A stretch of DNA of 64,000 bases, from NCBI GenBank assembly GCA_044336865.1, contig JBIIOQ010000011.1, forward strand, positions 3,850-67,849. The letters are read 5' to 3'. The first letter of the stretch is position 1; each line of letters starts with the position of its first letter. Made by a program: the position numbers. Shown in pieces: positions 36,001-45,000 of the stretch. The stretch is from Crocinitomicaceae bacterium (GTDB taxonomy: Bacteria; Bacteroidota; Bacteroidia; Flavobacteriales_D; Crocinitomicaceae).

Positions 36001-39000
36001 CGATACTAAATTGAGCACCATCAGGCACATAAATTGCCTCACCGGCTACTGATATTCTGAAGTTTTCATTTTTCTCAATACAGTCTGCTAAACGGCGTAA
36101 TTTATCAACGAATTCCTCTTTGGAGTACGATTTTTCTGTGTCTCTATTTTTCATGGGTCTTTTTTTTAGTTGCTCAAATATAGAAAAGATTGAGGTAGAA
36201 TCGTTAATTTAGAATTTTTATTAATTTACTTTATTATTGATGGTATTTTACGATGTTATAGGCGATATTCATGGGCATTCAGATGAATTGGAGGTCTTAC
36301 TTCAGAAACTCGGTTACCTTAAGGTAAATGGGGTTTACAGTCATCCTGGAGGGAGAAAGGTAGTTTTTGTGGGTGATTTTATCGATCGAGGTCCAAAAAT
36401 AAGGGAAACGCTACATTTGGTGCGTGATATGGTACTTTCTGGTAATGCACAAGCTGTAATGGGGAACCACGAATATAATGCCGTTTGCTTTAACACACCA
36501 AATTTGCATAGCGGTGGTTATTACCGCAAACATAATTATAAGGAAATTCACCAGCACTACGAGACGCTCAAGCAGTTTAAAGACTTTTCTTCAGAATTGA
36601 AAATGTTTTTGGATTGGTTTCGTCATTTACCCATGTTTCTTGAATTAGATGCATTTAAGGTGGTGCATGCGTATTGGAACGATGAGCACATAAATTGGTT
36701 AAAAGAAAACTACAAGCACGCTACCATTGGCTTAAATGCTGACTTTTTACAAGCAGCAAGTGTTAAAGAAAGCACTGCTTTTAAGGCCGTAGAGGAAACG
36801 TTAAAAGGTCCTGAACAAGAGTTGCCAGATGGCCAATTCATGGTGGATAAAGAAGGTGTAAAACGAAGTGAATGCCGCTTGAAATGGTGGTCTGTAAACA
36901 AAAGTACGATGGGTGAGGGCATTATGCATTGTCCTGAATCTTTGCTTGAGAGGTCTATGCCCGAAGGAAGTGATTTACGTATTTTTCAAAGCGAAAAGCC
37001 AGTCTTTTTTGGACACTATTGGCTACATGATAATCCAGTTATAGAAAACAAAAGTGCTATCTGTTTAGATTATAGCGTAGCGAAAGGAGGGAAGCTAGTC
37101 GCTGCGCGAATGGAAGGGGCTCAACTAAAATTGATTTATTAGGTCGCAGCTCAAATTCAGTTTGAACCCTCGAAATAAAGATTGAGCCATCAAGAACCAA
37201 AATCGAGCATCGCAATTTTCTAAATTAATTAACGATACTTTACGTGAAAAAATGTATGTTTGAATGTATTTTCACGGTAAATATAATAGCTTACTTTCGG
37301 CAAAAAAAAAATAATACCACTTGCACGTTGAGCATCGCAAAAAGGAGTAAAACCAAACGTTGCAGCCAATAAAGCCAAAAGACAAACGATTCCTGCCTTC
37401 CGTCTGCGAGAAAAATGGATGATTTCAGAAGAATAGACACCAAGCAAATAATTTAAAACAGGATAACTCAAATACAGGTATCTCTAACTATTTTTATTGA
37501 AATGTTATCAGTGCGCTGATTTTACGTTTATAAGATCAAATCCATCTATGACTTCAAAAGAAATTTTTCTCTCAATTAACAAAGAGATACTTCTAAAAAC
37601 AAATAACCCTTTTACTTATTCGAGTAAAGAAGAAGAGCGTATAGTCAACTTCAGAAACGGCATACGTGCTGCAATGCTTGGACTGTCGCGTTCAAACGAA
37701 ATTGAATTCTTTGAAGAGCTCCAGAAATTTTATGAAACAACGAAAGTTCCATTATTATCTAAAGAAGCTCATTTAATTCTTTACAAAAATTTTATAAGAA
37801 ATAAAGAAACTTTCAAATGCTTAACATATTTACTTGGAAAGTTAAAACATAAAGCATTTTCAAATGAGAAGTCTTTTTGGGAATTAGTAGTACATTATCT
37901 TATCTTTCCTGTAAACGCAACATTTGAAAACAGCAGGCACAAACTTGATATGTTTGTTGTAATTGCCTTACAATTATTTGTTAAGCATGGCTATGAATCC
38001 TTTCACCTTATTTTTAATTATACATTAAATAATTCGAGAGAAACCGTTCATTTTTGTTGGTCATCTCATGATATGGGTTCAATAAGAACAGTTGACTACC
38101 TGCTTCCTCTAAAAGCGCCAATAATGACGCACATATGGAAGACATATCGTTTTTTAACCGAAATGAATGCACCTTCCGAATTGTACGAAGTTATTTTATT
38201 TCAATATATACAATCAACTCCAACTTCGTTTCTTCACCACAGTAATTATTTTTCATTTTTTGACTATTTATATCGACGTATTCCAATAAGTACTATCCAG
38301 CGGGAAAGTTTACGATCAAACGAACTCCTTTTCGAAGTTTATCAGATTAACCCTAAAATTTTTGAATTAATAGACTTCAAAAAAGTCAATGAAGAATACC
38401 TTGAGATTTTAAATTCATCGCCTTGGTCTGACAGTAGATTAGGGGAGTTTTCTTCTTTTTTAGTGGAAAAAATGTTTAAAGCATATGGCATTTCCGTTTA
38501 TTTCGCAAAAGCTCATGTTGAACTAAAACTGACAATCATTGAAAAAGCATGGTTTAATGATGTTTTATCGGGCAAAAATTTAGTTTATTCCGCTAATCTT
38601 CCCTTTAAATTATCAAAAAAAGTAGCGCATGAATTTAACACGTCGCAATATATAATTAGTAATTCTGTCACTGATGCGCTGGTTCGCACCGCGATATTTT
38701 CAGAGGTTCAAGACATGGCTTTTGCCACAGTAATTACTAGAAAAATTAGAAACTTTTCGGAGAGTGATTTTTGGATTAAAACAATGGGTTTGTTATACCG
38801 AAAAGGATTGAGGGCTGATACAATCGAACTTAATGAGCTATATGATTATATCCACTTCCAAGAGTTTCAATTAGAGAGAAAAATAGATTTCACAACAAAA
38901 AAACTGTCCAACTTAATTGATGAATCAAATCAATGGCATCTTGTTCTTCATTTTTCAAAAGTGAAAAAAAGATTGCGATTAAAACGCTTACCTATTTTTA

Positions 39001-42000: not shown

Positions 42001-45000
42001 TGCAATCCTATCATCTAGAAAAACAAATAGTCAGAGTAGTGTTTCTCAAACCGAGAATGCCATTCAGAATATTTTGTTGGAAGAATTAGAAAATTTCAAA
42101 GGCATCTTTATTGCTACCACCAATCTTGCTGAAAACCTAGATAAAGCATTTGACCGAAGGTTTTTATTTAAGATTAAATTTAATAATCCAGGTATTGCAT
42201 CGCGAGCTGCTATTTGGAAAATCAAAATGCCCTTGTTGACGGAGAACGACACAAAAGTACTTGCTGAGACGCATTCGCTTTCTGGTGGCCAAATCGACAA
42301 CATTATTCGCAAGGCTGAAATACAATCACTGTTAAACGACGAAGAACCAAACATCGAGCAGCTTTTGAAATTTTGTTCTCAAGAAATTATTCTTCAAAGT
42401 GGGACAAAAAGTATTGGCTTCGGTAAGTCGTAGGGAACGAGAAAATTAAGTCATTTATTTTAATTTCTAAGGGAGTGTAACCAAAACCTAGAAGTATACT
42501 TATGAACGAATATAAAAAGTAAAATTATTTAGTTTTCACAATTAAAGATAATTTAAACTTATTCTTATGATCGTTACACTTAAGATTTTCGTTATTTTTC
42601 TTTTGTTCATTGCCTATTTCTCCACTTCCTTATTTGGTATAGCATTTATGGCAGGGTGCATTATTGGTGATCTTATCAGCGATAGGTTGTTCGTGCCAAA
42701 ATAAGGTTGTTCGCAGTGATTAAGAATATGGTTTGTATTCGCTACAGACTTCTCACCCAAATCGTTATAAATAAAAAATCCCCAACTTTCGTTGAGGATT
42801 TCTTGTGGGAGTTGAGGGGTTCGAACCCCCGACCCTCTGCTTGTAAGGCAGATGCTCTGAACCAGCTGAGCTAAACTCCCAAATTTGGACTGCAAATATA
42901 CACTTATTTTTTAATAGGAGTGAAAAACTACTCGTTATTTTTTAGCTCTTCAATTTTATTTAGCACATCGTCGAGTCCTTCTTTAAATTTTTCAAAGTCC
43001 TCTTTGTACAGGAAAATTTTATGCTTTTGAAAATTGTCATTTCCATCTTCCCCAAAAACCTTTTTACTTTCTGTTAGGGTAATGTATAAATCGTTTCCTT
43101 TTGTGGCTTTAATATCAAAGAAATAGGTGCGCTTTCCAGCTCTAACAACCTTTGAATAAACCTCGTTTTGATCATTATTCATGTTTTCATCAATTATATT
43201 AGTCAAAATTGAGATTTTTTTTTTAATTTTCAAACTTATTCATGTATCTTTTTACTATAAAATGTAAGTTGATTTTTTGAAACTTAATGAATTTATGCGG
43301 CAAAAAAATAAATCAAAAAGGAATTATTTTCAATTAGCTTGCTACTTTTTTGCATTGCTATTTTTTTCGTCCTGTTCAACGAAAAAAGGTCAGGCTGAAC
43401 CAAAATTTGACCTTGATGATATTAATAAAAAAGGGAAATTAACTGTTTTAATGGATAACAGCGCATTGTCCTATTTTGAATATAAAGGTAAGGATTTAGG
43501 ATTCGAATATGAAATTCTCGATTCGTTTGCAAGGTCGCTTGGTTTGAAACTTGAAGTCAAAATAATTCAAAATAGGGAGTCATTTCTTCGTTCCTTAAAC
43601 AATGGAGAAGGAGATATAATTGCTTGTAGTCACGCAATTACTTTGCCTGCTTTAAATGACATGGAATTTTCATTACCATATTATACAACACATCAAGTTT
43701 TAGTGCAAGCTAAATCAGTTGATAGTTTGTTGGTTAAAGAGGCATCTGATTTAGGAGGGAAGAGTGTTCATGTCGTAAAGGGCTCAGCATTTGATGATCG
43801 TCTTAAAAACCTATCAGACGAAATTGGTGTTGTTATAAATCGACGTTACATAGAATCGGATGTAAATGCAGAAGATCTTATCGAAATGGTGGCTAGTAAA
43901 AAAATAAAATATTGCCTAGCGAATGAAAATTTAGCACGAATAAGCAATGATTTACATGATAATATCGATACTAAAACTATTGTTTCTACAAATCAAAAAA
44001 TTGCTTTTGGCTTGAGAAAAAACAATCCTCAATTAAAAGCTAAGCTTAATGCTTTCCTTAGCAATTATTGCATTTCAAGTCAATTTAATCAATTGAAAAA
44101 TAGGTATTTTGATTATATGGTTCAGAATCCTGTTATTGAAACAATCCCTTTAAAAAAGGGACGTATTTCACCTTATGATGAATTATTTAAAGCGGCAGCA
44201 AGTAAATTTGGTTGGGATTGGAAAATTATTGCTGCAATATCAAGCAAGGAATCCAATTTTAATCCGAATGCAAGGGGATTGGGTGGTGCATTTGGCTTAA
44301 TGCAATTCATGCCTAATACGGGTGCACACTATGGTGTTTATCCAAACTCAACACCAGAAGTACAAATTAATGGTGCCATGGTCATGATAAGTAAAGTATA
44401 TAATTCTTGGTCTAGTATTCCTGACACCGAACAGCGAATGAAATTCACCTTAGCATCTTATAATGCCGGCAAAGGTCATATTGATGATGCACAACGTTTA
44501 GCTGTAAAGAACGGTTTGAATCCTCTAATTTGGGACGGAAATGTTCAAGTCATGGTAAAAAACCTAGCAGTCCCTGCTTTTTATCGTGATCCTGTTGTTC
44601 GTTGTGGCGCTTATAGAGGCCCTGCATCCAACTATGCAACAGCTGTTTATCAAAAATATCTATCTTGGAAATAAGGGGAGTGGAGCCAATATTAATTATT
44701 GTTCAGGGTCCAACAGCTTCCGGTAAAACTTCCTTAGCTATTGAATTAGCACTGTATTTTGACACCCAAATTATTTCAGCAGATGCACGGCAATTTTATA
44801 GCGAAATGTCAATTGGCACAGCAAAGCCATCTGACATTGAATTGTCGCAAGTGAAACATCATTTTATTAATTCACATTCTATTCAGCAGGATTTTACAGC
44901 TTCCAATTTTGCTCAAGAAGCTACACTGCTTTTGAATCGATTATTTGAAACGAGAAAGGTAGTTGTTCTTGTTGGTGGTTCGAACATGTTTATTGATGCA

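Follow-up and report, generated by a model that had tools for sequence, protein, structure and literature searches.

A block of four genes in a Crocinitomicaceae bacterium (NCBI GenBank assembly GCA_044336865.1) is probably an autoregulated transcriptional module of the extracytoplasmic function (ECF) sigma factor type, whose outputs would be an AAA+ ATPase and a PcfJ-like protein. The block lies on contig JBIIOQ010000011.1, in a stretch of 64,000 nucleotides (positions 3,850 to 67,849 of the forward strand) that was analysed as a whole and is referred to below as the window. It encodes, in this order, the PcfJ-like protein, a small protein here called g2, the sigma factor and the AAA+ protein, and one and the same promoter-like motif is found before the PcfJ-like gene, before g2 and before the AAA+ gene. 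While an ECF sigma regulon is a familiar kind of system, its partner proteins, promoter and output genes are new in this case; one motif, three targets and one sigma factor provide a testable wiring for four uncharacterised genes.

The four same-strand genes announced in a preliminary description of this DNA, made from the sequence alone, are all present as open reading frames (ORFs) on the plus strand, at 37497-39332, 39491-40081, 40078-40671 and 40694-42433. However, the ORF-maximal TTG start codons of the first and the last are probably wrong on sequence grounds. The homologues and the gene calls in relatives have 594 residues for the PcfJ-like protein and 561 for the AAA+ protein, and the starts were therefore placed at ATG 37548 and ATG 40748; the bases preceding these two codons are occupied by the promoter-like motifs. 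With these starts, the block consists of the PcfJ-like gene (37548-39332, its ORF running back to TTG 37497), g2 (39491-40081, 196 residues), the sigma gene (40078-40671, 197 residues) and the AAA+ gene (40748-42433). The overlap of 4 nucleotides between g2 and the sigma gene is also real, and consists of the TTGA at 40078-40081. None of the four proteins contains a hydrophobic segment resembling a membrane span.

The block was compared with a set of related loci, labelled L001, L097 and so on, for which about 1.5 Mb of DNA was fetched in all. Alignment of the DNA upstream of the g2 and AAA+ genes across these loci revealed the conserved motif TGTTAT(G)-N16-CGTA, with an unconstrained spacer. 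In its strict form the motif has three matches in the 64 kb of the window, compared with 0.27 expected. Two of them, both TGTTATG-N15-CGTA on the plus strand, lie 31 nucleotides before the g2 start codon (39435-39460, found by locus alignment and motif scan) and 28 nucleotides before the AAA+ start codon (40695-40720); the third is spaced differently and falls within an ORF. The PcfJ-like gene is preceded by a CGTT variant (TGTTAT-N16-CGTT, 37503-37528, plus strand), whose -10 element ends 19 nucleotides before the ATG, and which has kept its position in L097 (TGTTAT..CGTT) and in L001 (TGTTAG..CGTT) while the spacer has diverged. Every g2-sigma locus examined has the motif before g2, some with GTTAT at -35 or CGTC at -10, and with the N15 spacing in L004-6. 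The motif precedes both g2 and the AAA+ gene in L001-6, L011, L020, L091-94 and L097-99, and across the fetched DNA nearly all its instances are found directly 5' of g2, of the AAA+ gene or of a few neighbouring genes.

The geometry of this motif (a 6-mer, N16 and CGTA) matches that of known ECF promoters, as exemplified by Bacillus subtilis sigma-W, whose promoter is TGAAAC-N16-CGTA. At the sequence level, the operon that contains the sigma gene is preceded in all g2 loci by conserved -35 and CGT-type -10 elements, as expected for ECF autoregulation. Since ECF sigma factors usually direct transcription of their own operon, and since this motif precedes the operon of the sigma gene, we infer that it is the promoter recognized by this sigma factor. 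The resemblance to the sigma-W/RsiW pair and to ECF sigma/anti-sigma modules in general extends to a sigma factor composed of regions 2 and 4 only, to a co-transcribed partner and to a promoter before the module's own operon, with a 6-mer, a 16-nucleotide spacer and a CGTA -10 element. In contrast, the -35 element in the window is TGTTAT rather than of the AAC type, the sigma factor falls just under the cut-off of the curated ECF model TIGR02937, and the partner is encoded upstream of the sigma gene and is a soluble alpha/beta protein with neither an anti-sigma domain nor a membrane span.

Some further observations concern the motif and its surroundings. Two motif-like sites of the window are located within ORFs, one at 34426-34451 on the minus strand (TGTTAT-N16-CGTT) and one at 17590-17614 on the plus strand (TGTTAT-N15-CGTA), and are probably chance matches. 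In the g2 promoter region, a GTAAC(T) element (39414-39420 in the window) lies some 15-20 nucleotides 5' of the -35 element, and recurs at the same position in L001, L004, L011 and L091; two possibilities are a regulator site and a leftover of the divergent promoter belonging to a gene described below, which encodes a protein with an HExxH motif. In L042 and L052 there are four copies of the motif per 10-kb stretch, before a SIR2 gene, a gene for a 305-residue protein, the AAA+ gene and a gene for a 122-residue protein, so that the local regulon is larger, and no sigma gene is present there within 10 kb. Scans of the window for Sigma-70 consensus promoters and for terminators gave results at chance level only.

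The sigma factor had been described as a sigma-70/ECF-like protein with regions 2 and 4, and Pfam matches to Sigma70_r2 (4.6e-6) and Sigma70_r4 (4.9e-4) bear this out; these two regions, in a protein of 197 residues, are the composition typical of ECF factors, which contain only sigma-2 and sigma-4 in about 200 residues. With the NCBIfam model sigma70-ECF (TIGR02937) the protein scores 40.5 bits against a cut-off of 42.9, and because of this near miss it is regarded as a divergent member of the ECF group. The sigma factor cannot be called an orphan, as had been suggested, because it is obligatorily paired with g2, to which the relatives add the HExxH protein. An orthologous sigma gene follows g2 directly in every g2 locus recovered.

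The g2 protein had been said to have no recognisable motif, and indeed no family in Pfam, NCBIfam, PADLOC or PHROGs matches it. When 1.84 billion representative proteins were searched with a profile, the family came to 46 members, all standalone proteins of about 200 residues. The AlphaFold2 model (18-sequence alignment; predicted local distance difference test, pLDDT, 76) is composed of alternating beta-alpha units, and a PDB sequence search gave nothing informative. The motifs ILWVGD and LIVGS suggested a receiver or pseudo-receiver domain, an assignment that was abandoned because hhalign gave a probability of 0.1% against CheY and Foldseek yielded generic flavodoxin/Rossmann-like matches only. 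Canonical anti-sigma factors are not a match either, since g2 shows no Pfam or NCBIfam similarity to them, no membrane span and an alpha/beta fold. From its family, gene order and model, g2 is a soluble protein and the obligate upstream partner of the sigma factor; it would be the dedicated cytoplasmic regulator of that factor, most likely an anti-sigma, or else a co-regulator.

The arrangement is not confined to this genome. The g2-sigma-AAA trio occurs in seven lineages, with AAA+ proteins 48-93% identical to that of the window, and the AAA+ gene directly follows the sigma gene in seven of the eight g2-sigma lineages, being absent only from the most distant one, L095/96. All four genes are found together in L097-99 and L001-3, the two lineages most closely related to the window and the only ones in which a PcfJ-like gene accompanies the trio. 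The idea of a self-contained transcription-switching cassette thus survives in part: co-occurrence and the single motif before three transcription units support it, but the PcfJ-like gene is not part of the conserved core.

PcfJ takes its name from a protein of a conjugative plasmid, Enterococcus pCF10. As had been noticed, a C-terminal PcfJ module is the only recognisable part of the first protein: the Pfam match covers residues 496-592 only (E=1e-9), and with 38.8 bits is above the PF14284 gathering cut-off of 25. The module has the invariant motif EG..HCV..Y...C and T.E, with HCV conserved. The likeness to PcfJ of pCF10 is therefore limited to the last 100 or so residues, while the N-terminal 480 or so are unrelated to anything described, with no match in PADLOC, NCBIfam, PHROGs or Pfam; the PDB contained no sequence match to the protein. 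At L044 and L058, PcfJ-like genes also adjoin distant AAA+ homologues without a sigma gene in the vicinity, so the link between PcfJ and AAA+ proteins recurs independently. Should the proposed wiring be correct, it would provide the first regulatory context for any PcfJ-like protein.

In every g2-sigma locus without a PcfJ-like gene, its position is taken by a divergent gene for a protein of 351-435 residues containing an HExxH motif, which was found nowhere else. The protein, a putative protease, carries the HExxH motif together with D and E residues, all of them invariant, and its C-terminal motif is DUF1232-like. Its matches to zincins are weak (the best, SprT-like, at 0.036), no family match is significant, and the sole match of its profile in the PDB is non-significant (E=0.1). 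There is an analogy with the ImmA/ImmR and CapP/CapH protease-regulator pairs, in that the regulator operon of the relatives is paired with a divergent HExxH protein, possibly a signal-activated protease. It is an analogy only, as the HExxH gene is absent from the window and matches no family significantly. The g2 and HExxH proteins would represent two new families of ECF sigma partners, one a soluble alpha/beta protein encoded upstream of the sigma gene, the other linked to the sigma gene.

The fourth gene had been predicted to encode an AAA+ module behind an unassigned N-terminal domain of 340 residues. Pfam confirms this (AAA, PF00004, E=1.8e-23, residues 365-496, about 41786-42181 in the window) and has no family for the first 340 or so residues. 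A model of the N-terminal domain (pLDDT 86) shows two winged-helix modules (about 40748-41710), for which Foldseek searches of PDB and BFVD gave only partial winged-helix matches, of the MarR, PadR, MukE/F and TFIIE types, all with E>0.01. The ATPase domain belongs to the classical clade of AAA+ proteins. The Walker A motif GAPGTGKTE, the variant Walker B motif NEAD, MWFGESE and DRRF are all invariant in the alignment, and profile matches in the PDB are to VAT, p97 D2, Afg2 and Vps4 (1e-30 to 1e-21). With the unfoldases p97, VAT, Vps4 and FtsH the domain shares Walker A, the MWFGESE pore loop, a sensor-1 residue and a double Arg finger, and VAT and p97 D2 are matched at 1e-30 to 1e-24. Unlike these proteins, the window ATPase has a single ring domain, a different N-terminal domain and, in Walker B (FNEAD, 42022-42036; residues 432-436 in the 579-residue numbering), an Asn in place of the usual Asp, a substitution found family-wide.

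Members of this AAA+ family are about 555 residues long, align end to end down to 37% identity and are almost all from Bacteroidota; the scan of species genomes yielded at least 489 loci. Only IetA and TRIP13 are matched in PADLOC, and by the AAA domain alone. IetA, of the IetAS defence system, and the phage family phrog_3757 are the best PADLOC and PHROG matches of the AAA domain (5.6e-23 and 2.5e-37), and are single-ring classical AAA proteins like the window ATPase. IetA lacks the tandem winged-helix N-terminal domain of 340 residues, and the window protein scores 76.6 bits with the NCBIfam IteA model, whose cut-off is 510, only the AAA domain being aligned. Neither the window nor the related loci contain a gene for the IetS serine protease.

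In the AAA+ protein tree, a clade marked by the motif is separated from a sister clade. The motif is kept across the whole of the first clade, including members with no g2-sigma pair within 10 kb, and is absent from the second. There, a gene for a WYL-WCX protein of about 300 residues takes its place: such a gene adjoins the AAA+ gene in 40 of 96 loci, almost all of the sister clade, and is usually immediately downstream. The surroundings of the WYL clade include GmrSD-like DUF262 pairs, a DEDDh exonuclease, type I restriction-modification, AbiE and the PADLOC PDC-S10 metallophosphoesterase. WYL-WCX proteins of the BrxR/CapW type are regulators of defence islands (10.1101/2021.12.19.473356; 10.1101/2022.01.04.474952), and the sister-clade AAA+ genes are co-operonic with proteins of this size and architecture in defence islands, therefore representing the same cargo gene under a different inducible regulator. 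The window differs in being regulated through a sigma-type promoter, and contains no adjacent gene for a winged helix-turn-helix protein with WYL and WCX domains; such genes stand only beside the AAA+ genes of the sister clade. The loci L019 and L020 are syntenic, but the HExxH-g2-sigma trio present upstream of the AAA+ gene in L020 is absent in L019, which keeps the motif, and it follows that the regulator module is gained or lost independently of the ATPase gene.

A separate observation concerns the sister clade. A cassette of seven genes recurs across orders (L026 at 4792-13093, L029, L028 and L100, the last on the Chryseobacterium plasmid NZ_CP033935.1). Its order is Zn-ribbon, DEDDh exonuclease, GmrSD-like DUF262, DUF262, AAA+ of the window family, small metallophosphoesterase (PADLOC PDC-S10, 1.4e-47) and WYL-WCX, and by itself it may constitute a defence system not yet described.

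The cassette of the window has sharp borders. Homology among the window, L097 and L001 ends exactly at the AAA+ stop codon, and in L001 begins inside the PcfJ promoter. In L097 (90% identity in g2), an intact Fic gene (295 residues) and a DUF4116 gene flank the cassette and there is no tRNA, and in L001 both flanks differ again. As homology stops at its borders while the flanks differ among these three contexts, the cassette behaves as a discrete, exchangeable unit. The window and L097 are collinear in blastn save for 734 nucleotides of the Fic gene, missing in the window, where a 162-nucleotide remnant of its 3' end (37288-37449, plus strand) is left as a deletion scar between the metallophosphoesterase and PcfJ-like genes. 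Genes adjacent to the cassette are variable, and include those for zeta toxin, Fic, AbiEii, DUF4143 ATPases and GT4-conflict proteins. Just past its intact AAA+ gene, L001 also has a duplication derived from the 3' end of a second AAA+ allele (12424-12883, 91.7% identical to window 41978-42437), which looks like the scar of a cassette replacement.

These results can be assembled into a possible mechanism. The g2 protein and the sigma factor would be made together from one operon, and the sigma factor would recognize TGTTAT-N16-CGT(A/T), whose presence before the g2-sigma operon would result in positive autoregulation. Because the motif precedes their genes as well, the AAA+ and PcfJ-like proteins would be outputs. 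The g2 protein would hold the sigma factor, and in the relatives the zincin-like HExxH protein may inactivate g2 on a signal. Once induced, the AAA+ protein, with its tandem winged helices and its p97/VAT-like ring, may use the helices to attach to its target, either DNA or a protein, and then unfold or dismantle it; this kind of substrate, and a role of the ATPase in defence, are what we infer. The trigger is most likely phage infection or a related stress, because the sister clade is coupled to BrxR/CapW-type regulators in defence islands, and a phage- or stress-inducible response is our best guess. The most far-reaching reading would be a new kind of inducible conflict system in which the sigma factor, held by g2 and freed through a zincin-like or PcfJ-like sensor, induces an AAA+ protein that dismantles a protein-DNA complex of a phage or mobile element, the effector family being wired either to a sigma factor or to a WYL regulator. 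To this reading we assign a probability of about 0.25, and a defence role of the cassette is in itself tentative.

A precedent exists for a dedicated ECF sigma factor turning on defence genes: in Myxococcus, the ECF sigma/anti-sigma pair DdvS/DdvA controls a CBASS-CRISPR defence island (PMC11506125). No homology is claimed, and the differences are clear, because DdvA is a transmembrane anti-sigma and the targets of DdvS are known defence systems. The proteins of the window, as had been anticipated, match no described defence, secretion or mobile-element system, judging from PADLOC, NCBIfam and the context of the cassette. The arrangement is likewise undescribed in PADLOC, NCBIfam, Pfam, the ECF re-classification paper and the conflict-systems literature searched, including Kaur et al. 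(2020), and literature searches on PcfJ, on ECF with AAA and anti-phage, and on BrxR/WYL with AAA returned no description of it.

It should be noted that several observations weigh against the proposed module and its role. Many motif-bearing AAA+ genes have no sigma gene of the window's type within 10 kb (none is adjacent in L007/8, L012-19, L031, L034, L042, L052 and L064), and another of the host's ECF sigma factors could be the one that reads the motif. Other genes preceded by the motif encode SIR2, transglutaminase/NlpC-P60, NADAR and class-V aminotransferase proteins, a set more suggestive of a general stress regulon than of defence. In more distant lineages the trio remains within a neighbourhood of conserved synteny (Glu_synthase / Metallophos / Amphi-Trp), and is thus less mobile than typical defence islands. 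As to the proteins, Foldseek matches of the g2 model are only generic flavodoxin/Rossmann-like ones (best PDB match E=2.6e-3, template-modelling score <0.55), ATPase competence is assumed for a protein with NEAD instead of a DExD Walker B motif, and, apart from the generic AAA-domain match, none of the four proteins is represented by a PADLOC model.

A serious, if unlikely, alternative is that the genes form a vertically inherited regulon for general stress or quality control in freshwater, Crocinitomicaceae-like Flavobacteriales, with no role in conflicts with phages or mobile elements. The synteny and the additional motif-bearing genes just mentioned would fit such a regulon well, as would the housekeeping flanks of the cassette in the window (GH92, PhnA, YkuD, spermidine synthase, MiaA, SLT, FKBP) and the absence of the AAA+ family from the phage collection searched. 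It would account poorly for a cassette whose homology ends precisely at its borders in three different contexts, for the duplicated AAA+ fragment of L001, for variable neighbours that include Fic, zeta toxin, AbiEii, DUF4143 and GT4-conflict genes, and for a sister clade found in defence islands and on a plasmid. The G+C content, which dips slightly to 0.30-0.32 in the first three genes from about 0.36 in their surroundings, also speaks against vertical inheritance.

Alternatively, the AAA+ protein might belong to the switch itself, unfolding or extracting g2 or the sigma factor, either on its own or combined with the HExxH protein into a split FtsH-like protease, and so releasing the sigma factor in a feed-forward loop. 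Other ECF systems are known to have their anti-sigma factors degraded by AAA+ proteases, and this favours the idea, together with the position of the AAA+ gene directly after the sigma gene in seven of eight lineages, a classical-clade unfoldase domain with a canonical pore loop and with matches to FtsH and PAN models, and the linked zincin-like gene of the relatives. Still, we consider it improbable: L095/96 retain g2, sigma and HExxH genes without an AAA+ gene, the tandem winged helices point to another kind of target, and in most of the family g2, sigma and HExxH genes are all missing from the vicinity, leaving the AAA+ gene with only the motif or a WYL neighbour. Because most of the family thus occurs without a sigma gene nearby, the ATPase is better placed as an output of the module than as part of its switch.

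The preliminary description had also considered that the block might be what is left of the regulatory part of an integrative element. In favour of such an element, integrative or conjugative and inserted at the tRNA-Val gene, are the tRNA 3' end facing the block, the plasmid origin of the PcfJ name, the slightly low G+C content and, in distant loci, PcfJ beside DnaB_C-like ATPase genes. This reading is very improbable and largely refuted, since the tRNA 3' end is unrepeated, no integrase, relaxase or transposase gene is present within about 10 kb of the block, and the cassette of close relatives adjoins no tRNA. The gene for tRNA-Val(tac) (42805-42880, minus strand; the sole match of an Rfam scan) does face the block with its 3' end, as stated in the preliminary description, across a gap of 371 nucleotides from the AAA+ stop codon. 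A search for repeats of this 3' end found only the tRNA itself, a general repeat scan gave pairs at chance level, and neither an integrase nor a direct repeat of the tRNA 3' end, the marks of a tRNA-targeting element, occurs around the block. With housekeeping genes on both sides, the adjacency is incidental.

If the conflict-system reading is correct, a widespread and hitherto undescribed defence effector exists across Bacteroidota, with interchangeable transcriptional triggers. An anti-phage function of the ATPase would provide a case of regulator swapping around a common immune effector, and the second example, after DdvS, of immunity under ECF control. What the loci display is a Bacteroidota-wide AAA+ family that is always under an inducible regulator, be it a sigma-type promoter or WYL-WCX, and is often found in defence islands.

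Two further features of the locus deserve mention. Upstream of the Fic remnant there is a gene for a calcineurin-like metallophosphoesterase of 301 residues (36237-37142, plus strand; Pnkp-phosphatase/PrpE/ApaH-like), a recurrent neighbour of the AAA+ family. Related metallophosphoesterase genes (c9) are found near the AAA+ gene in L004, L020, L022, L073, L083, L091, L093 and L097, in loci of both the sigma type and the WYL type. No promoter motif was found before the gene in the window, and its membership in the module is uncertain. Finally, an inverted repeat of 26 nucleotides, with 73% complementarity, brackets the g2, sigma and AAA+ genes (39337-39362 / 42483-42508), and is probably due to chance because its right arm lies in DNA that is not common to the relatives.

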